DNA of 64,000 nucleotides, from the NCBI GenBank assembly GCA_963663815.1, contig OY760734.1, one strand, 5' to 3'. A program made the position numbers and the translations under genes. The notes beneath the pieces are model-generated. The model was not told the DNA's origin and did no database searches. It saw only the letters and a list, made by a program, of their open reading frames with translations. This document shows, one piece after another, positions 3,574 to 62,648 of the stretch (position 1 is its first letter; every line of letters starts with the position of its first letter). The DNA is from Vicinamibacterales bacterium (GTDB taxonomy: Bacteria; Acidobacteriota; Vicinamibacteria; Vicinamibacterales; UBA8438).

Positions 3574-4755
3574 GTGAGACGCATCGCGATTCTCGGCTCG
3601 ACCGGCTCCATCGGCGTCAGCGCGCTGTCGGTGGCGGCGGCGCATCCCGATCGGATAGAGGTCGTCGGTCTTGCGGCCGGCGCCAACGCGTCCCGGCTCG
3701 CCGAGCAGGTCGAACGCCATCGGCCGCGGTTGGTCTCGACCGCCGCCGACGCGGGGCTGGACGCGGTGCAGGCGGCGCTGCCGGCGCCGGTCCGGGCGGG
3801 TATCGAGCACGCGGCCACGGGCGCCGAGGGGCTGCGCGCGGTAGCCACCCATCCCGCCGTCGACCTCGTGCTGATCGCGACCACCGGGACCACCGCCCTC
3901 GACGCGGTGCTCGCGGCGATCGAGGCGGGGAAGACCATCGCCCTGGCCAACAAGGAGGTCCTGGTGATGGCCGGCGGCCTCGTCATGGCCGCGGCCCGCC
4001 GGCGCGGGGTCGCGGTGCTGCCGGTCGACAGCGAGCACAACGCCATCCACCAGTGCCTCCACGGGCGCTCCCCCGGCGAGGTCCGGCGGCTGCTGCTGAC
4101 CGCCTCCGGAGGTCCGTTCCGGGGCTGGGCGGCCGAGCGGCTGGACGGCGTGCGGCCGGCCGACGCCCTCGCCCACCCGACCTGGCGCATGGGCCGCAAG
4201 ATCACCGTCGACTCGGCGACGTTGATGAACAAGGGCCTCGAGGTCATCGAGGCCCGGTGGCTGTTCGACACGCCGGCCGACCGCATCGACGTGGTCGTGC
4301 ACCCGCAGTCGGTGGTGCATTCGCTGGTCGAGCTCCGCGACGGGTCGGTGATCGCCCAGATGGGGGTCACCGACATGCGGCTGCCCATCCAGTACGCGTT
4401 TTCGTACCCCGACCGGTGGGACAGCCCCCTGCCGCCGCTCGATCTCGCCGCCTGCGGCCGCCTCGAGTTCGCCCCGCCGGACCTCGAACGGTTCCCGTGC
4501 CTGGGGCTCGCCTACCGGGCGTTGCGCGGCGGGCCGGCCCTGCCCGTCGCCCTCAACGCCGCCAACGAGGCCGCGGTCGAGGCGTTCCTCGCCGAGCGGC
4601 TCGCGTTCACCGCGATTCCCGCCGTCATCGCGGGGGCCCTCGACGACGCGGAGGCGGCGTCGGACCCGGCGACCCTCGACGAGGTGCGGCGCGTGCACGG
4701 ACGCGCCGTCCGGTATTCCCGCCGCCGCATCACCGAGTTACAATCGAAACGATGA
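3574..4755 (+). CDS. dxr: 1-deoxy-D-xylulose-5-phosphate reductoisomerase
   Basis: 393 aa with a GTG start behind GGAAGGCGGAG. IAILGSTGSIG NADPH-binding N-terminus, LANKE, and the HP.W.MG.KITVDSAT.MNKGLE block. Overlaps rseP in an ATGA junction. Confidence 0.93.
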   Translation: MRRIAILGSTGSIGVSALSVAAAHPDRIEVVGLAAGANASRLAEQVERHRPRLVSTAADAGLDAVQAALPAPVRAGIEHAATGAEGLRAVATHPAVDLVLIATTGTTALDAVLAAIEAGKTIALANKEVLVMAGGLVMAAARRRGVAVLPVDSEHNAIHQCLHGRSPGEVRRLLLTASGGPFRGWAAERLDGVRPADALAHPTWRMGRKITVDSATLMNKGLEVIEARWLFDTPADRIDVVVHPQSVVHSLVELRDGSVIAQMGVTDMRLPIQYAFSYPDRWDSPLPPLDLAACGRLEFAPPDLERFPCLGLAYRALRGGPALPVALNAANEAAVEAFLAERLAFTAIPAVIAGALDDAEAASDPATLDEVRRVHGRAVRYSRRRITELQSKR

Positions 4756-6071
4756 CCACTCTCCTCGCGTTCCTGTTCGTCCTCGGGGTGCTCGTCTTCG
4801 TGCACGAGCTGGGGCACTTTCTCGTCGCCCGGCATCACGGCGTCCGTGTCCTGACGTTCTCGCTCGGGTTCGGCCCGAAGATCCTGCAGACGAAGCGGGG
4901 CGACACGGTCTACTGCGTCAGCGCCATACCCCTCGGCGGCTACGTGAAGATGGCCGGCGAGACGGTCGAGGACAAGCGCGAGGGCCGGGACGACGAGTTC
5001 CTGTCCAAGACCAAGTGGCAGCGCTTCCAGGTCCTGATCGCCGGGCCCGCGATGAACGTCGTGCTCGCGGTGGTGGTCATGACCGTCGTGCTCCTGCAGG
5101 GGGCCCGGGTCCCCCTCTACGAGGAGGGGCCGCCGGTCATCGGGTCGGTGGCCGAGGACTCTCCCGCCGAAGACGCCGGCATGCTCCCCGGCGATCGCAT
5201 CCTGACCGTGGCGGGGCGGCCCGTCGACACGTGGGAAGAGCTGGTGCTCGCCGTCGTGGAGCGTCCGGACCGCGAGGTCGAGGTGTCGCTGCGGCGCGAC
5301 GGAGAGGTCCGGCGGCTGCGGGTGACCCCGGTGGGCCAGGGCAGGTACAACCTGGGCGATCTCGGCGTCGGACCCGATGTCTCGCCGGTGGTGGTCGCGT
5401 GGTCGTCGCAGGCCACCGCCGCCCGCGACGCCGGCATCGAGGTCGGCGACGCGATCGTGGCCGTCGATGGCCGGAGAGTCCAGCAGGAGTCGTTGATCGA
5501 AGCGATCAACGCCAGCGACGGCGCGCCCCTGACGCTCCAGGTTCGCCGCGGCGGCGAGAGCCGGGAGATCACCCTGGCCCCGGAGCAGGTCGGCGACGCG
5601 TGGATGATCGGGATCTCGTTCAGCCCGTTCGAGACGCGCGTCGTCGAGCCGGGGCTGTTCGAGGCGTTCACGCTCAGCCTCGAGCAGAACCTCGAATGGT
5701 CGCAGCTCATCTTCCGGACCCTGTGGGGGCTGCTGACGCGGGAGACCCCGGCGTCGCAGCTCGTGGGGCCGGTGGGCATCGCCCAGCTCTCCGGCGACGC
5801 GGCCCGGTTCGGCTGGGTGACGCTGTTCCAGCTGATGGCGATGATCAGCCTCAATCTCGGCATTCTGAACCTCCTGCCGATCCCGATCCTCGACGGCGGC
5901 CACATCACCGTCCTCGCGCTCGAGGGCATCGCCCGCCGGGAGTTCAGCGTGCGGTTGAAGGAACGGATGCTCCTCGCGGGCTTCGTGGTCCTCATGACCC
6001 TGATGGTGACGGTGATCTACAACGACCTGACACGCGTCGCGTGGATCGAGCGCCTGATGATCTGGCGCTAG
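4752..6071 (+). CDS. rseP: RIP zinc metalloprotease RseP (site-2 protease)
   Basis: ATG at 4752 inside the 4053..6071 frame. HELGHF (HExxH) in the first TM segment, PDZ-like middle part, and NLLPIPILDGGH near the C-terminus. The stop TAG (6069-6071) lies inside the repeat at 6068-6155. Confidence 0.9.
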   Translation: MTTLLAFLFVLGVLVFVHELGHFLVARHHGVRVLTFSLGFGPKILQTKRGDTVYCVSAIPLGGYVKMAGETVEDKREGRDDEFLSKTKWQRFQVLIAGPAMNVVLAVVVMTVVLLQGARVPLYEEGPPVIGSVAEDSPAEDAGMLPGDRILTVAGRPVDTWEELVLAVVERPDREVEVSLRRDGEVRRLRVTPVGQGRYNLGDLGVGPDVSPVVVAWSSQATAARDAGIEVGDAIVAVDGRRVQQESLIEAINASDGAPLTLQVRRGGESREITLAPEQVGDAWMIGISFSPFETRVVEPGLFEAFTLSLEQNLEWSQLIFRTLWGLLTRETPASQLVGPVGIAQLSGDAARFGWVTLFQLMAMISLNLGILNLLPIPILDGGHITVLALEGIARREFSVRLKERMLLAGFVVLMTLMVTVIYNDLTRVAWIERLMIWR

Positions 6072-6155
6072 GAGTCTGCGCCGTAGAACGGTGCAGACTC
6101 CTAGCAGGGTTGGTTGGGCGGCAATCGGAGCCGTAGGCGACGATTTCCGGGCTAG
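6068..6155 (+). repeat. Family-1 88-bp two-hairpin 'CTAG' repeat, copy 1
   Basis: CTAGGAGTCTGCGCCGTAGAACGGTGCAGACTCCTAGCAGGGTTGGTTGGGCGGCAATCGGAGCCGTAGGCGACGATTTCCGGGCTAG. It has a 17-bp-stem hairpin plus a second 8-bp-stem hairpin. Homologous copies lie at 15699, 19184 and 34665. Confidence 0.9.
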
Positions 6156-6276: not shown

Positions 6277-7779
6277 GTGTCGAGCCCGATCCGGACAGGA
6301 CCCGTGACGGCCGGGCCCGGGCCGAGGGCCGGGCCGGGGACGGCGCTGCGGGCGCTCCGCCGCGAGCTGCCTCCGACCGTTGGCCTCGCCGCGCCGATCG
6401 TGATGGCCGAGCTCGGGTGGATCGCGATGGGCATCGTCGACATCGCGATGGTCGGCCGCCTGGGGCCGGCCGCCATCGGGGCGGTGGGCGTGGGCAGCGT
6501 CCTCTGCTTCGCGGTGGTGGTGTTCGGCATCGGCATGCTGCTGGGGCTCGACCCCCTGGTGGCGCGGGCCCACGGCCGGCGGCGCCTCGACGCGTGCCGG
6601 CGGTGGCTCGTCCACGGGGCCGGCCTCGCGGTGGCCCTGGCCGCGCCGCTGACCCTCGCGGCCGGCGTGGTGGCCGCGACCCTCGACGCGTGGGGCATGG
6701 ACCCCGAGGTCCAACGGCTCGCCGGGCCCTACTTCGCGATCGTCCTGTGGAGCGTGCTGCCGCTGCTGCTCTACACCGCGTTCCGCCGCTACCTGCAGGC
6801 CATCGGCCTCGCCACCCGGGTCACGGCGGCCCTGATCAGCGCGAACGCCATCAACGCCGCCGCCAACTGGCTGCTCATCTTCGGCAACCTCGGCCTGCCC
6901 GCCCTCGGCGTCGACGGCGCGGCCTGGGCCACGGTCATCTCGCGCGCGTACCTGGCCGTGTTCCTCGCGGCGGCGATCCTGCGCCACGAGCGCCGCGCCG
7001 CCGCCCCCTGGCCGCGGCTGCGCTTCGAGCGCCGCCGCCTTCGCCGCCTCCTCGCGATCGGCCTGCCGGCGGCGGGGCAGGTGACCCTCGAGTTCGGGGT
7101 GTTCGCGGTCGTCACCGCCCTCGCGGGCCGCCTCGAGGCGGCCACCCTGGCCGCGCACCAGATCGTCCTCAACGTCGCCAGCGCGACGTTCATGGTGCCG
7201 CTGGGCGTGGGCGCGGCCGGCGCGGTCCGGGTGGGGCACGCGGTCGGCCGGCGCGACCCGTCCGGGGCCCGGCGGGCGGGCTGGGCCGCCCTCGCCCTCG
7301 GCGGGGGCTTCATGAGCATCGCCGCCCTGTTCTTCGTGCTCGCGCCGCATCCCATCCTGCGGCTGTTCACCACCGACCCGGCGGTGACCCGGGCCGGCGT
7401 GACGCTACTGCTCGTCGCCGCGGTCTTCCAGCTCTTCGACGGGCTGCAGGCGGTGGCGACGGGGGCGCTCCGGGGGCTGGGCGACACGCGGACGCCGCTG
7501 GTGTGCAACCTCGCCGGTCACTGGCTCATCGGCCTGCCGGTCGGCTACGTGCTCTGCTTCGTCGCGGGCTGGGGCATCGTCGGCCTGTGGGTGGGGTTGT
7601 CGATCGGGCTCGTCCTCGTGGGGGCGGCCCTCGTGGCGGCGTGGTGGTGGGCGACCGGCCCGCGCGGCGGCGCGGCGGCGCGCGACCGGCCCGCGGCGCT
7701 CGGAGCACCCGCTCTCGAATCGCCTGGGCCAGCCCCGTCTCGTCGTGCCCGGCCGTCAGCGGCCACCCGCGGCGCTTGA
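6277..7779 (+). CDS. MATE-family efflux transporter
   Basis: Polytopic protein with a typical MATE N-terminus (LRRELPPTVGLAAPIVMAELGWIAMGIVDIAMVGRLG) and a GALRGLGDTRTP motif. The start is uncertain: GTG 6277 sits behind GGAG, GTG 6304 is an alternative, and the ORF-track start at 6091 lies inside a repeat. The last ~25 codons run into the 117-bp tandem repeat. Confidence 0.8.
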   Translation: MSSPIRTGPVTAGPGPRAGPGTALRALRRELPPTVGLAAPIVMAELGWIAMGIVDIAMVGRLGPAAIGAVGVGSVLCFAVVVFGIGMLLGLDPLVARAHGRRRLDACRRWLVHGAGLAVALAAPLTLAAGVVAATLDAWGMDPEVQRLAGPYFAIVLWSVLPLLLYTAFRRYLQAIGLATRVTAALISANAINAAANWLLIFGNLGLPALGVDGAAWATVISRAYLAVFLAAAILRHERRAAAPWPRLRFERRRLRRLLAIGLPAAGQVTLEFGVFAVVTALAGRLEAATLAAHQIVLNVASATFMVPLGVGAAGAVRVGHAVGRRDPSGARRAGWAALALGGGFMSIAALFFVLAPHPILRLFTTDPAVTRAGVTLLLVAAVFQLFDGLQAVATGALRGLGDTRTPLVCNLAGHWLIGLPVGYVLCFVAGWGIVGLWVGLSIGLVLVGAALVAAWWWATGPRGGAAARDRPAALGAPALESPGPAPSRRARPSAATRGA

Positions 7780-8053
7780 GCTCGTCCGCCGCGTTGCCCG
7801 TGACCGGCCCGGGCATTCAGAGCACCCGCTCTCGAATCGCCTGGGCCGGCCCCGTCTCGTCGTGACCGCCCGTCAGCGGCCACCCCCGGCGCCTGAGCTC
7901 GGCCGCCGCGTTGCCCGTGACCGGCCCGGGCATTCAGAGCACTCGCTCCCGAATCGCCTGGGCCAGCCCCGCCTCGTCGTGACCGCCCGTCAGGGGCCAC
8001 CCGCAGCGCTTGAGCTCGGCCACCGCGTTGCCCATGACGACGGGGTGCCCGGC
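7703..8053. repeat. 117-bp tandem repeat x3 built from the 3' end of the HAD phosphatase gene
   Basis: Units at 7703-7819, 7820-7936 and 7937-8053 (the last is the real gene end). Each carries the last ~38 codons plus the TGA stop on the minus strand. The copies differ at roughly 10% of positions. Confidence 0.9.
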
Positions 8054-11454: not shown

Positions 11455-11504
11455 TATGGCGGGGAACGATATCACGGGGCGGCCGGCCGCTTCGCAGCCG
11501 CGGC

Positions 11505-11650
11505 AGGGTCCCGCGGCAGGCGACCGGCGACGCATCCCGCCTGACGGTGCCGTTTCTCGGTCCCCTGTGCCCGGCAAGTTCCTCGTCACGCCTTGTCACG
11601 CAAGCGCCTTGCCGGTCTCGGTGCAACGCCCGGGTTTCGCCACGAGCGGC
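11505..11650 (-). repeat. Family-2 rod-like element, degenerate third copy
   Basis: GACGCATCCCGCCTGAC and CCTCGTCACGCCTTGTCAC..GCC...CTCGGTGCAACGC...TT.CGCCACGAGC align with 43088-43247 and 62212-62456. The AT-rich central part is replaced. The ends are approximate. Confidence 0.5.
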
Positions 11651-13511: not shown

Positions 13512-13698
13512 GAGCCGCTCGGATCGCCTCGATCCGCGCCGGGATTGCCGTCAGGCGCGCTCCTTGCCGTTCCGGCGGTCGCGCAGCCGCTCGACAATCG
13601 CCTCGATCCGCGCCGGGATTGCCGTCAGGCGCGCTCCTTGCCGTTCCGGCGGTCGCGCAGCCGCTCGACGATCGCCTCGAGCAGCGCCGGCACCGTCG
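13512..13698. repeat. 74-bp tandem repeat (about 2.5 units) built from the 3' end of hemD
   Basis: TCAGGCGCGCTCCTTGCCGTTCCGGCGGTCGCGCAGCCGCTCGAC(A/G)ATCGCCTCGA... occurs at 13551 and 13625, with a partial unit at 13512-13550. The unit contains the last ~15 codons and the stop of hemD. Confidence 0.9.
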
Positions 13699-15658: not shown

Positions 15659-15698
15659 TGGCCCGCTCCGCGCCTGCGCGGTCAAGGCATCGTCGGCG

Positions 15699-15786
15699 CT
15701 GGCCCGCCCATCGTCGCCTTCGGCTCCGCTGGGCGCCCAACCAACCCTGCCAGGAGTCTGCACCGTTCTACGGCGCAGACTCCTAG
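15699..15786 (-). repeat. Family-1 88-bp 'CTAG' repeat, copy 2
   Basis: Near-identical to 19184-19271 and 34665-34752. The outer CTAG is mutated to CTGG. It lies downstream of hemC in the sense orientation. Confidence 0.9.
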
Positions 15787-19183: not shown

Positions 19184-19271
19184 CTAGCCCGCCCATCGTC
19201 GCCTTCGGCTCCGCTGGGCGCCCAACCAACCCTGCCAGGAGTCTGCACCGTTCCACGGCGCAGACTCCTAG
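19184..19271 (-). repeat. Family-1 88-bp 'CTAG' repeat, copy 3
   Basis: Full copy. Its first CTAG (sense orientation) contains the TAG stop of the VWA gene (19270-19268). Confidence 0.9.
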
Positions 19272-34664: not shown

Positions 34665-34752
34665 CTAGCCCGCCCATCGTCGCCTTCGGCTCCGCTGGGC
34701 GCCCAACCAACCCTGCTAGGAGTCTGCACCGTTCTACGGCGCAGACTCCTAG
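34665..34752 (-). repeat. Family-1 88-bp 'CTAG' repeat, copy 4
   Basis: Full copy. Its first CTAG (sense orientation) contains the TAG stop of atpF (34751-34749). Confidence 0.9.
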
Positions 34753-41229: not shown

Positions 41230-41292
41230 GTCGCCGGGCGACCTTGCGGTCGCCGGGCGACCTTGCGGTCGCCGGGCGACCTTGCGGTCGCC
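41230..41292. repeat. 19-bp tandem repeat x3.3, each unit containing a GGTCGCC-G-GGCGACC palindrome
   Basis: GTCGCCGGGCGACCTTGCG at 41230, 41249 and 41268, plus a partial unit. Located in the intergenic region between murJ and the rhomboid gene. Confidence 0.9.
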
Positions 41293-41319: not shown

Positions 41320-41334
41320 TGCGCCGCGAGGATG

Positions 41335-41376
41335 GCCGCCCAACAAGTCCTGCCGGGAGTCCGCGCCGTTCTACGG
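41335..41376 (-). repeat. Family-1 repeat, truncated/diverged copy
   Basis: GCCGCCCAACAAGTCCTGCCGGGAGTCCGCGCCGTTCTACGG aligns with the ...GCGCCCAACCAACCCTGCCAGGAGTCTGCACCGTTCTACGG part of the full copies. The murJ TAG stop lies in its loop. Confidence 0.6.
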
Positions 41377-43059
41377 CTCCCCTCGCCCTCCGTCCTCGGC
41401 CGACGAGGGCCGCCCCGCGCCCGGCCGGCCCAGGATCTGCGCGCGGACCTCGTCGAGCTCGGCGATGCCGAGGAGCCGGGCGGCGGCGGTCAGCACCACC
41501 AGGCCCAGCATGATCTCGCCGCCGAGGACGAGCGCCTCGATCAAGAGGCCGCCCTCCGCCGCCAGGTTCCCGGCCATGCCCTCGGCCGCGGCGACCGCCG
41601 CGCCCATGATCCCGGCCGCGAGGCAGGTCCGCGCCAGGCGGTCCGCGAGGCGGCGGGCGTCGATGCCCCCGAGCCGGTGGTGCAGCAGCACGAGCAGGAC
41701 GCCCGCGTTGAGCCAGGACGCGAGGGACGTGCCCAGCGCGAGACCGGGATACCCCATGACCCGCACGAGGGCGAGGTTCAGCCCGACGTTGACCGCGACG
41801 GTGGCGACGCCGACCCCGGCCGGGGTCAGGCTGTTGCCGAAGGCGTAGAACACCGGGGCGGTCAGCCGCACCGCCGCGTAGCCGACGATGCCCGGGGCAT
41901 AGAACACCAGGGCTCGCGCGGTCGCGGGAGTGTCGGCGGCGGTGAACTCGCCGTGCTCGAAGACGAGCCGAACGACGGGGGTCGCGAGGACCGCGAGGCC
42001 CACCGCCGCCGGCACCATCACCGCGAGCATGAGGCGCAACCCGCGGAAAACGGCGTTCCGCACCGCCGCGAGGTCGCCGGCCGCGGCGTGGCGGGACACC
42101 GCGGGCAGCGTCACGGTGGCTATCGACACGCCGAACACGCCCAGCGGGAGGTACATCAGGCGGAACGCCATCGTAAGCCAGGTGACGGCGCCGGTGCCCT
42201 CGCCGGTGGCGAGGTGGGTGTTGACGAGCAGGTTCACCTGCAGCGCCGCCCCCGCCACCGTCGCCGGCCCCATCAGCCCCGCGACCTCGCGCAGAGTCCG
42301 GTCGGCCGGATCCAGGGCGGGCCGCCAGCGGAACCCCTCGCGGCGCAGCGCCCACCACTGCGCCGCGATCTGCCCCGCCCCGCCGAGCAGCACCGCGGCC
42401 GCGACCGCCGCGATGGGGTCGACGCCGCCCTCGGGCATCAGGGGCACGACGACGAGGGTGCCCGCGATGAGGCAGACGTTGTAGGCGGCAGGCGACAGCG
42501 CGGGGACGAAGAACCGCCGCAGCGAGTTGAGCATGCCCATGCAGGCGGCGGCGATCGCCACCAGGGTGAAGAACGGCAGCACGATGCGGGTCAGCTGCAC
42601 GGTCAGCTCGAACTTGCCGGGGACTTCCTGGTAGCCGGCGGCGAACAGGCGGGTCAGGGGCTCGGCGAAGACGATGCCGGCCACCACGATGCCGCCGGTG
42701 ATGACCGCGAGGGCGTTGATGAGCTGGACCCCCAGCCGCCACGCCGCGTCGCGGCCCCCGCGGGTCAGGCGCCGCGTGAAGACGGGCACGAAGGCGGCGT
42801 TCATCGCTCCTTCCGCGAAGAGCTCGCGCAGCAGGTTGGGAATGCGCAGGGCTACGAGGAAGGCGTCCATCCGGTCGCCCGCCCCGAAGCGGTAGGCGAG
42901 GGCCTGGTCCCGCACCAGTCCCAGCACCCGGCTCGTCATGGTGGCGAGGCTCACGATGCCGGCCGAGCGGGTGAGGCCGTCGCGCGTGGAGTTGGGGGGC
43001 GTCATCGTCGGGGACGCGTCGAGGCGCCGCGCCTCGCGGGCCTCGGCGCTGCGCGCCAT
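41371..43059 (-). CDS. murJ: Lipid II flippase MurJ
   Basis: Start ATG 43059 (GGGAG 12 nt upstream; ATG 43005 is an alternative). SAGIVSLATMTSRVLGLVRDQ..A..FGAG...DAF..A.R.PN.LR.LFAEGA and about 14 TM segments. Confidence 0.88.
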   Translation of the reverse strand: MARSAEAREARRLDASPTMTPPNSTRDGLTRSAGIVSLATMTSRVLGLVRDQALAYRFGAGDRMDAFLVALRIPNLLRELFAEGAMNAAFVPVFTRRLTRGGRDAAWRLGVQLINALAVITGGIVVAGIVFAEPLTRLFAAGYQEVPGKFELTVQLTRIVLPFFTLVAIAAACMGMLNSLRRFFVPALSPAAYNVCLIAGTLVVVPLMPEGGVDPIAAVAAAVLLGGAGQIAAQWWALRREGFRWRPALDPADRTLREVAGLMGPATVAGAALQVNLLVNTHLATGEGTGAVTWLTMAFRLMYLPLGVFGVSIATVTLPAVSRHAAAGDLAAVRNAVFRGLRLMLAVMVPAAVGLAVLATPVVRLVFEHGEFTAADTPATARALVFYAPGIVGYAAVRLTAPVFYAFGNSLTPAGVGVATVAVNVGLNLALVRVMGYPGLALGTSLASWLNAGVLLVLLHHRLGGIDARRLADRLARTCLAAGIMGAAVAAAEGMAGNLAAEGGLLIEALVLGGEIMLGLVVLTAAARLLGIAELDEVRAQILGRPGAGRPSSAEDGGRGEP

Positions 43060-43087
43060 CGCGTCAGGGGGCTCCCGGCGGGGCTCA

Positions 43088-43247
43088 ACAGCCCGTGGTG
43101 GAAGTCCCCGCTGCATTCGAGCGACGATGCATCCCGCCTGACTGCGTTGTTCGTCGGTTGCATATGCCCAATATGCGCCCTCCTCACGCCTTGTCAGCCG
43201 GGCGCCTCGCCGCTCTCGGTGCAACGCGGGGTTCCACCACGGGCTGT
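43088..43247 (-). repeat. Family-2 ~160-nt rod-like inverted-repeat element, copy a
   Basis: Terminal 16-bp inverted repeat ACAGCCCGTGGTGGAA / TTCCACCACGGGCTGT. The interior pairs almost continuously and has an apical GCATAT-n5-ATATGC hairpin. It fills the ychF-murJ spacer. The strand is assigned from G-U versus A-C asymmetry. Confidence 0.85.
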
Positions 43248-44329
43248 CACGTGGCGAACCGGAAGTTGATGACGTCGCCGTCGCGGACCACGTAGTCCTT
43301 GCCCTCCAGCCGCACCTCTCCGTGCTCGCGGCAGGCGGCGTGCGAGCCCTCGCGGGCGGTCAGGGCGTCGTAGTGGACGACCTCGGCGCGGATGAACCCG
43401 CGGGCGATGTCGCTGTGAATCTCGCCGGCCGCCTCTTGCGCGGGGGTGCCGCGCGGGATCGACCAGGCCCGGCACTCGTCCTTGCCCACCGTGAAGAACG
43501 AGATGTACCCCAGCAGCCGGTAGCTCGCCCGGATCACCCGGTCGAGCCCCGAGTCGGCGAGGCCGAGGTCGGCGAGGAAGGCGGCCCGGTCGCCGGCCGG
43601 CAGCTCCGCTATCTCCAGCTCGATCTTCGCGCAGGCCGGGACCGTCTCGATGCCGCTGCCGGACAGGGCGCCGGCGAGGCCGGCCCGCTCGACGGCCCCC
43701 TCCGGGTCCGCCACGTCCGCCTCGTCGAGGTTGAGCACGACGAGCAGCGGCTTGGCCGAGAGGAAGCTGAAGCCCCGCAGCCGCCTGGCGTCGGCCGCGT
43801 CGAGGTCGAGGGCGCGCAGCGGCCGGCCGTCCTCGAGGGCGGCCCGGCACCGCTCGATCAGCCGCAGCTCCTCCTCCAGCTCGCGGCTCCGGCCCTTCTT
43901 CATGTCCTGGCCGATCTTCTCGCGCCGCCGCTCGGCCACCCCCAGGTCGGCCAGGATCAGCTCGTCCTCCATCTGCCGCGCGTCCCGCGCGGGGTCGAGG
44001 CCGCCGGCCGCGTGGGGGACGCGCTCGTCCGAGAACATCCGCAGCACGTGGAGCAGCGCGTCGGCGGTGCGGAAGCCCGACACGTCGAGCATCGCCGCGG
44101 CCGAGCCGTGGCCGGCGAGCTCGCTCACCTCGACCGTGGCCGGCACCCGCCGGCGCGGGTCGAAGAGGGCCGTCAACCGATCGAGCCGCGGGTCCGGCAC
44201 CTGCGCGACGCCGACCTGCGCCGCCTGCCGGCGCGGCGCCGCCGCCGGCTCGCCGGACGTTTGCGTCAGCAGTCGGAACAGGGTGGTCTTCCCGGTCGAC
44301 GGCAGCCCGATGAGCCCGGCCCGCAGCAT
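43247..44329 (-). CDS. ychF: Redox-regulated ATPase YchF
   Basis: Start at MLRAGLIGLPSTGKTTLF (P-loop; ATG 44329). TGS-like C-terminus: RAW.I..G..A..AAG.IHSD...GFIRAEV. and V.DGD...F.F. Confidence 0.9.
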   Translation of the reverse strand: MLRAGLIGLPSTGKTTLFRLLTQTSGEPAAAPRRQAAQVGVAQVPDPRLDRLTALFDPRRRVPATVEVSELAGHGSAAAMLDVSGFRTADALLHVLRMFSDERVPHAAGGLDPARDARQMEDELILADLGVAERRREKIGQDMKKGRSRELEEELRLIERCRAALEDGRPLRALDLDAADARRLRGFSFLSAKPLLVVLNLDEADVADPEGAVERAGLAGALSGSGIETVPACAKIELEIAELPAGDRAAFLADLGLADSGLDRVIRASYRLLGYISFFTVGKDECRAWSIPRGTPAQEAAGEIHSDIARGFIRAEVVHYDALTAREGSHAACREHGEVRLEGKDYVVRDGDVINFRFAT

Positions 44330-62128: not shown

Positions 62129-62155
62129 AAAAAAAACCCCGCCGTGGAGGCGGGG
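62129..62155 (-). terminator. Canonical rho-independent terminator
   Basis: The minus strand reads CCCCGCC-TCCAC-GGCGGGG followed by TTTTTTTT. An 8-nt T tract is exceptional in this window. Confidence 0.8.
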
Positions 62156-62211
62156 CAGGCGGGCACGGCCGCTCGTGCGCTCGACGAGCGTGCCGGCAGG
62201 TGGCGTAGCGT

Positions 62212-62456
62212 AGGAGCCCGTGGGGGAATCCCCGCTGCATTCGAGCGGCGATGCATCCCGCCTGCGCCCGGCAAGCGTCGCCTGCGGCTCCGATTGCCGC
62301 CCAACCACGCCTGCCGGGAGTCTGCGCCGTGACCGGCACAGACGCCCGGTTGCGTTGTTCGTCGGTTGCATATGGCCAATATGCGCCCTCCTCACGCCTT
62401 GTCAGGCGGGCGCCTCGCCGCTCTCGGTGCAACGCGGGGTTCCCCCACGGGCTCCT
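62212..62456 (-). repeat. Family-2 rod-like element, copy b (interrupted by an 85-bp insert)
   Basis: Collinear with 43088-43247 apart from 6 small differences and an insertion at 62265-62349. Terminal inverted repeat AGGAGCCCGTGGGGGAA / TTCCCCCACGGGCTCCT. Confidence 0.85.
62265..62349 (-). repeat. Family-1-like element nested inside family-2 copy b
   Basis: Diverged homolog of the 88-bp repeat (..GGCTCCGATTGCCGCCCAACCACGCCTGCCGGGAGTCTGCGCCGTGACCGGCACAGACGCCCGG). Both hairpins are retained, and the flanking tetranucleotide is CCGG-like instead of CTAG. Confidence 0.7.
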
Positions 62457-62480: not shown

Positions 62481-62555
62481 TGGTGGGCCCACCAGGATTC
62501 GAACCTGGGACAGACCGGTTATGAGCCGGCGGCTCTACCGCTGAGCTATGGGCCC
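62481..62555 (-). tRNA. tRNA with CAT anticodon (elongator Met, or Ile2 if lysidine-modified)
   Basis: The reverse complement GGGCCCATAGCTCAGCGGTAGAGCCGCCGGCTCATAACCGGTCTGTCCCAGGTTCGAATCCTGGTGGGCCCACCA folds as a cloverleaf. It has a 7-bp acceptor stem, GCTC/GAGC D stem, CTCATAA anticodon loop, TTCGAAT T loop and an encoded CCA. Confidence 0.93.
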
Positions 62556-62648
62556 CGATGGGATGGCGCATCCGCGGGTTGCCGCCGCGAAACGCGCCTG
62601 GAAGCCGGTGGCGAGCGTGCAGCGCGGCGTTCACCACGGCCCCCCGGT

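Follow-up and report, generated by a model that had tools for sequence, protein, structure and literature searches.

A CTAG-associated, rod-shaped repeat of Vicinamibacterales is very probably a 158-bp miniature inverted-repeat transposable element

[quoted passage not shown] MITEs are defined as small (50–800 bp), non-coding elements with inverted ends of at least 10–15 bp and a target duplication of 2–10 bp, occurring in many copies at polymorphic sites (PMC11602168), and the present repeat has the appropriate size, terminal inverted repeats, a 4-bp duplication, dispersed copies and presence/absence polymorphism. As such it is an element of a well-known kind, found in an under-studied order. 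A first-pass annotation of the window had listed two close copies and a degenerate third, and had put forward a MITE carrying an outward promoter, a structured 5′-UTR or sRNA element and a 6S-like rod RNA as candidate explanations. All three copies are present, with their limits now refined (Table 1), and the first of these explanations is supported, as far as the MITE is concerned, by target-site duplications, copy number and empty sites. Searching the window with copy 1 (nhmmer), and again with a family profile, returned these three copies and no others; their exact limits were set from the family consensus.

Table 1. Positions of the element copies and associated features in the window.
Feature	Position	Strand	Description
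Copy 1	43089..43246	minus	Full-length MITE, 158 nt; ends CAGCCCGTGGTGGAA...TTCCACCACGGGCTG
Left flank of copy 1	43085..43088	plus	TCAA; half of a decayed 4-bp target-site duplication
Right flank of copy 1	43247..43250		TCAC; other half of the decayed duplication
Promoter-like site in copy 1	43170..43197	minus	CTGACA, 16-nt spacer, CATATT; 9 of 12 consensus matches
Copy 2	62214..62454	minus	Composite MITE with GAG...CTC ends
Nested insert in right arm of copy 2	62265..62349		85 nt; member of the second repeat family of the window
Likely intrinsic terminator	62136..62156	minus	8-pair stem then T8; downstream of copy 2
Copy 3	~11495..11649	minus	Old, degenerate; ~75% identity to copy 1

Copy 1 folds into the end-to-end rod that had been proposed for it, and does so on both strands. 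As RNA, the minus strand is paired end to end at −107.1 kcal/mol (z = −8.2) and the plus strand reaches −95.1 kcal/mol (z = −6.3); as DNA, both strands are stable as well (−55.9 for the minus and −48.3 for the plus strand). Copy 1 departs from the family consensus by changes of its own, a G-G mismatch and a G-U wobble among them, and in copy 3 the fold is no better than that of shuffled sequence (z = −0.25). Copies 1 and 2 differ as first described: by two double changes in the terminal stem, by a G-U pair versus a G-C pair, by a mismatch versus a pair and, at unpaired positions, by one bulge change and one loop change. Their outer flanks, described before as non-homologous and complementary, are in part what remains of a target-site duplication (TCAA/TCAC at copy 1); the other part is a terminal base that varies between subfamilies (CAG..CTG or GAG..CTC). 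Read in the orientation of the element, the flanks of copy 1 are GTGA and TTGA and match at three of four positions; copies 2 and 3 have no recognisable target-site duplication, and no copy in the window has a perfect one.

The genome-wide search for further copies that had been suggested was productive. A scan of one genome per species with a pattern from the left arm of the element gave at least 117 loci, nearly all of them in metagenome-assembled genomes (MAGs) of Vicinamibacterales, and these hold at least 134 non-redundant copies after removal of reverse-strand shadows and duplicates, in about 35 species-level genomes and with more than 20 loci in a single assembly among the matches listed. 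A second scan, of metagenomes and with the end sequence only, yielded 78 further loci, mostly from other subfamilies, whereas a scan of viral contigs gave 0 matches and plasmid and phage collections held no match to the element. The canonical length is 158 nt (58 of 94 full copies lie within 1 nt of it, among the matches listed), and the 21-bp terminal inverted repeats, CAGCCCGTGGTGRAACCCCGCG and its complement, are conserved. The canonical unit has the ends CAGCCCGTGGTGRAA...TTYCRCCACGGGCTG, replaced by GAG...CTC ends in nine copies among the matches listed; CAGCCCGTGGTG is likewise an end sequence of the MITE family. Size variants comprise short deletion forms and units to which a small hairpin or tandem insert has been added, either close to the apex or within the right arm. 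The composite of window copy 2 recurs at loci L027, L087, L093, L097 and L100, and since it is thus found in several other genomes, its spread came after the nested insertion. Internal loops and bulges are conserved in all subfamilies, which argues for one shared ancestor and not for separate fold-back duplications.

Genuine copies were also met outside the Vicinamibacterales label, in a Bryobacterales MAG (L059) and in Candidatus Rariloculus (L102); the element may have spread horizontally or have a wider host range, or the genomes may be wrongly binned or labelled. At two other loci, from Pyrinomonadaceae (L046) and Chloroflexi (L073), the short search pattern was all that matched and no recognisable element was present. 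Loci L019 and L079, about 6.35 Mb apart on chromosome OZ220718, belong to a segmental duplication of ~3.6 kb with 98.5% identity, which includes one MITE copy flanked by TCCA in both segments.

Identical 4-nt flanks bound 44 of the 94 full copies among the matches listed, and in 66 of these 94 the flanks match at three or more of the four positions. Permutation of the flanks produced on average 14.7 identical pairs and at most 26, against the 44 observed, and other registers produced 0–2 identical pairs; of the 34 copies in the metagenome set, 24 are flanked by identical 4-mers. CTAG makes up 23 of the 44 identical duplications among the matches listed, and C, T, A and G are the consensus bases at the four positions. 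Filled and empty orthologous sites were found in the locus pairs L008/L067 (the clearest case), L002/L107 and L103/L094. The flanking CTAG might be read differently, as a target at one end and a cleavage tag at the opposite end rather than as a duplication, if the element were a derivative of a Y1/HUH single-strand transposon (of the REPIN/RAYT or IS200/IS605 PATE type) moving as a DNA hairpin. Arms that covary as in hairpin-dependent elements, the stable folding of both strands as DNA and the CTAG at both ends of most copies all accord with such a derivation, which we nonetheless regard as very improbable and have rejected on the grounds of the varied target-site duplications and the long terminal inverted repeats. 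Among the matches listed, 21 copies lacking CTAG have identical flanks, drawn from 15 different 4-mers that include TTTG, TCAA, TCCA, TCAG, CTGA, GTAG, CTAT and ATAG, some of them non-palindromic; where the left flank is non-palindromic, the right flank is a direct repeat of it in 20 copies and an inverted repeat in 1 (again among the matches listed). A tag that is fixed and travels with the element is ruled out by fifteen different duplicated 4-mers, which a duplicated target explains. The ends, moreover, are long perfect terminal inverted repeats and not subterminal hairpins, and there is no strand asymmetry. No RAYT gene lies near any copy examined.

Placement relative to genes can be understood for the MITE from its target preference. 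The first-pass annotation had the element always directly upstream of a minus-strand gene, which fails across the family; it had also taken further copies in both orientations as the mark of a plain MITE, and such copies are what we find, in every intergenic context. Genes were called with a GC3-based ORF filter, by which stops are reliable and starts approximate, and contexts were counted for copies with both neighbouring genes within 500 nt. Among the matches listed, 33 copies lie in tandem and co-oriented with the flanking genes, 20 in tandem and anti-oriented (18 at a 400-nt limit), 29 between convergent genes (25 at 400 nt) and 23 between divergent genes, and the distance to a co-oriented downstream start varies from −2 to 891 nt. 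Over all tandem copies the orientation bias (33 versus 20, p = 0.10) is not significant and for full-length copies (27 co- versus 13 anti-oriented, p = 0.04) it is marginal, both among the matches listed; a purely neutral MITE does not predict this lean of the full-length copies. One end adjoins a predicted stop codon in 41 of 96 full copies among the matches listed, and a predicted start codon in only 1 of the 96. In the window CTAG occurs 14 times against 161 expected from base composition, about eleven times more rarely, and the remaining sites are mostly at gene ends (stop codons) or repeat borders. Copies abut stop codons because TAG lies within CTAG, and as CTAG is rare in DNA of 72% G+C, they accumulate exactly at the 3′ ends of genes, where the upstream gene is left unharmed because the duplication restores its stop codon. 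In a compact operon, an insertion at a stop codon automatically puts the element just upstream of the next gene, so that the apparent tie to downstream genes is an effect of target preference.

This is the situation of copy 1, which has the ychF stop codon on one side and the murJ ATG (43060) on the other: positions 43247–43249 (TCA on the plus strand) are the minus-strand TGA stop of ychF and fall within the right flank of the element, and its position before murJ is explained by this stop codon, with no functional link to downstream genes required. Copy 2 lies between tRNA-Met (62481–62555) and the minus-strand terminator of Table 1, which is probably the terminator of this tRNA gene. It had been placed just upstream of a zinc-ribbon gene, a description that overlooks this terminator, which separates the two and is kept in L087. 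Copy 3 lies in intergenic DNA from which two genes diverge, hemL on the minus strand and a cytochrome-c-like gene on the plus strand. For both murJ and hemL the longest ORF extends into the element, the ORFs across copy 1 are spurious read-throughs and the element has no coding capacity.

Locus L087 has the same composite as window copy 2, with the same nested insert and again between tRNA-Met and the conserved terminator, and this composite is far better conserved than the intergenic DNA that flanks it. Between the two, double changes in the terminal stem exchange GAG..CTC for CAG..CTG and GGGGG..CCCCC for GGTGG..CCACC, and the flanks at the junctions differ by insertions and deletions. As the flanks differ in this way and both variants are found as subfamilies, conversion or replacement by another copy is as likely here as compensation in place. 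A lone MITE end, the remnant of another stop-codon insertion, is found upstream of tRNA-Met just after the TAG/TAA stop of rpoD, both in the window (62603–62642, degenerate) and in L087 (CAGCCCGTGGTGGAACCCCGCG).

A second repeat family of ~85–90 nt also occurs in the window, at 6068–6155, 15697–15786, 19184–19271 and 34665–34752, with a partial copy at 41333–41377 and the copy nested in copy 2. Two hairpins make up the unit, of which one is AGGAGTCTGCRCCGT..ACGGYGCAGACTCCT, and intact copies have a CTAG at either end, accounting for 9 of the 14 CTAG sites of the window. From its sequence it looks like another small CTAG-using mobile element, the ends of which are not obvious inverted repeats. 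Three tandem repeats were noted besides. Positions 13523–13690 hold a near-perfect duplication (74-nt unit, 2.3 copies, 96% matches) just upstream of the minus-strand start (13458) of a hemB-like gene. Three copies of a 117-nt unit, a multiple of 3, stand at 7684–8038 (91% matches), read as coding on the minus strand and resemble the C-terminal end of a Cof/HAD-type hydrolase ORF, so that this may be an internal repeat within a gene. A perfect 19-nt repeat, GTCGCCGGGCGACCTTGCG, is present in 3.3 copies at 41230–41292, between a rhomboid-like gene and the 3′ end of murJ.

The promoter-like hexamers reported for the element are indeed present on the minus strand in both copy 1 and copy 2. Neither region has a promoter-like match other than CTGACA-16-CATATT, and shuffled sequences contain no such match. 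The hexamers occur in 50 of the 70 copies of the genome set, in which the search pattern forced part of the −35 hexamer, and in just 2 of the 34 metagenome copies chosen by their ends alone. In other subfamilies CTGAC/GTCAG is changed to CCCGC/GCGGG, and CATATT to CAAATT, CACACC or AATACG, in each case with pairing kept. Judged from these sequences, the promoter-like site belongs to one subfamily and not to the whole family, and the predicted site may or may not fire as a promoter. The proposed MITE with an outward promoter therefore stands in its first half, and in its second only as a possibility for the subfamily of the window copies. Were the element a mobile promoter, transcription would leave through the right arm and drive murJ and hemL, and the facts that all three window copies face a downstream start codon and that Correia elements carry putative promoters (PMC2229807) would be accounted for. 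We consider this unlikely as an explanation of the family, given the 2 of 34 copies just mentioned and a −35 region that reads CCCGCA in other subfamilies, with the other arm compensating. Three of three copies in the same direction has a chance probability of 0.25, and copies facing a gene start are not significantly more numerous than those facing away (the 33 and 20 tandem copies above, among the matches listed). With a terminator between copy 2 and the next gene, a transcript from the putative promoter would stop before that gene. For the MITE, any effect on a neighbouring gene, through a promoter or a hairpin in the transcript, would be a side effect limited to a particular copy or subfamily.

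Compensatory change is pronounced in the family. In the genome set (70 distinct copies), 33 of 51 predicted pairs show at least one double change in which pairing is kept. The 34 ends-selected metagenome copies, taken together with window copy 1, provide a cleaner test: 98.0% of cells are paired compared with 89.8% in shuffles, double changes occur in 23 of 57 pairs, and there are 136 double-change cells against 38 ± 4.4 in shuffles and at most 20 with slid partners. Across these 35 sequences the terminal 21-pair helix is nearly invariant, whereas the internal helices show double changes in 14 of 21 and 7 of 12 pairs. As covariation thus lies in the internal helices, the ends are constrained in sequence and the interior in complementarity only. 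The compensatory changes first noticed between the window copies are real and strong, but they do not speak for an RNA when the mobile element that carries them is a long palindrome. When pairs from both strands are pooled, G-U and A-C cells are equally common (219 versus 222 and 125 versus 134); the G-U excess on the forward strand disappears on pooling and is an artefact of predicting the structure on that strand. Private substitutions per column number 0.63 at paired and 0.52 at unpaired positions, so that paired columns are not depleted. Together with the loss of the fold in copy 3, this indicates that resident copies decay neutrally, and with neither strand asymmetry nor purifying selection after insertion the compensatory changes do not show RNA function.

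These data bear on whether the MITE has been adopted by its host as a minus-strand structured RNA, with the rod acting on neighbouring transcripts (as a 3′-end stabiliser, an RNase III/RNase E target or a leader, for example) and covariation reflecting selection on RNA pairing. Strong covariation in two independently selected sets speaks for adoption, as do the weak co-orientation lean of full-length tandem copies (27 versus 13, among the matches listed) and the precedent of ERIC and Correia elements (PMC2229807). The forward strand, in addition, is ~8 kcal/mol more stable than the reverse strand in 68 of 70 and 34 of 35 copies, but the copies are not independent in this respect because the difference comes from few family-wide positions. 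Pooled G-U and A-C cells in equal numbers, undepleted paired columns, the lost fold of copy 3, copies in both orientations and every context, and an orientation bias that is not significant over all copies (p = 0.10, among the matches listed) weigh against it, and we judge host adoption to be improbable. A conserved non-coding RNA gene or cis-acting leader (6S-like, or a 5′-UTR) that happens to be multicopy would account for a rod fold of roughly 6S size with covariation, but is extremely improbable. The Rfam scan that had been advised identified only tRNA in the whole window at gathering thresholds, namely tRNA-Met at 62484–62555, and in 43000–43330, at E up to 10, two chance-level matches beside the element and none to it. 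The earlier candidates of a structured 5′-UTR or sRNA and of a 6S-like rod RNA are accordingly not supported: neither has an Rfam match, the distance and orientation to genes vary and a strand-specific signal is absent. A 6S-like RNA and a fixed 5′-leader are rejected, since each genome has many dispersed copies and the insertions show target-site duplications as well as empty sites.

We propose that the MITE is moved in trans by a DDE transposase with IS5-like behaviour, which would bind both ends and make 4-bp staggered cuts in the target. IS5 generates a 4-bp target duplication with the consensus C(A/T)AG/A (PMC11677980), MITEPsy1, a 100-nt MITE linked to the IS5 family, duplicates CTAG or YTAA (PMC3189936), and the present element has an IS5-type target, a 4-bp duplication resembling CTAG or C(A/T)AG/A. 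It is from this likeness in the length and sequence of the duplication, and from nothing else, that we infer an IS5-like partner. The search for a partner covered orphan ends, pairs of left and right halves separated by more than 300 nt, the sequence following truncated copies and, in metagenome contigs, the ORFs next to truncated ends. Neither a full-length insertion sequence sharing the terminal inverted repeat, for which the first-pass annotation had recommended a search, nor any other autonomous one with matching ends is present in the ~1.3 Mb made up of 8-kb blocks around MITE copies. The only transposase seen was an IS66-family gene in L043, dismissed as a partner as it is unrelated to the MITE ends. 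In that locus (Vicinamibacterales assembly CBDDJQ) the gene lies at 3817–5283 within a repeated segment, and a repeat of ~950 bp at 1–950 and 4912–5862 holds part of it.

The rod shape of the MITE would follow from its two arms, each the inverted copy of the other from end to end. In the interior, the arms would stay complementary while their sequence drifts, through constraint or correction acting on the amplifying lineages: either a hairpin or cruciform would help mobilisation, or template-switch correction would operate between the arms of the quasi-palindrome. Template-switch correction between arms is a known mutational process in quasi-palindromes. On neither option does complementarity stem from selection on resident copies, which decay neutrally. 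The internal covariation along the whole rod goes beyond what a simple model of an internally deleted insertion sequence needs. It could mean that the interior ~110 nt are selected for complementarity alone while the ends are fixed in sequence, and that spread requires the folded form or that the rod has an RNA role in the host, a stronger claim that we put forward as speculative and rather unlikely. If true, the spread of a DDE-type element would depend on a single-stranded or cruciform fold, or the rod would serve the host as RNA, and the element would be an unusual MITE, structure-dependent and targeted to gene ends via CTAG.

Several consequences follow for the reading of such genomes. Strong covariation by itself does not point to a functional RNA when the repeat is a long palindrome, and recognising these elements in annotation avoids false RNA genes, false leaders and spurious ORF extensions. 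Where CTAG is rare, a simple target preference can steer insertions onto stop codons and leave genes unharmed. Vicinamibacterales are a soil order that is common though hardly cultured, and their intergenic DNA is home to at least two repeat families associated with CTAG. Insertions of the MITE can be used to type strains and to trace recent transposition.

Among known systems, MITEPsy1 of Pseudomonas syringae and the IS5-derived MITEs resemble the element in being small and non-coding, in their terminal inverted repeats and in a 4-bp target duplication that prefers CTAG. The element, however, has no sequence similarity to them, is 158 nt rather than 100 nt long, is G+C-rich and is paired along its whole length; and whereas MITEPsy1 matches ISPsy2, no candidate parent of the element was found in the loci around its copies. 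Long stem-loops are the usual fold of transcripts from bacterial MITE families (PMC2229807), and the ERIC/IRU, Correia/NEMIS, YPAL and RPE families (PMC2229807) are, like the element, dispersed intergenic units of ~100–170 bp in which the whole unit forms a long stem-loop (PMC2229807). Families of the ERIC and Correia type also share nested and deleted size variants with it, and some (Correia) carry putative promoters. In contrast to the 4-bp, mostly CTAG duplication of the element, the ERIC, Correia, YPAL and RPE families mostly have TA termini or a TA duplication, and they occur mostly in proteobacteria or Rickettsia whereas the element occurs in Acidobacteriota; RNA effects of ERIC and Correia have been shown experimentally, whereas the element is described here from its sequence. 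REPINs, the REP doublets moved by RAYT, resemble the element as hairpin-forming mobile units with arms that evolve together. They are tied to a RAYT gene, are built from REP units of 20–40 bp with a GTAG or CGTC tag (PMC3733652) and lack a target-site duplication, whereas the element described here has both a target-site duplication and 21-bp terminal inverted repeats.
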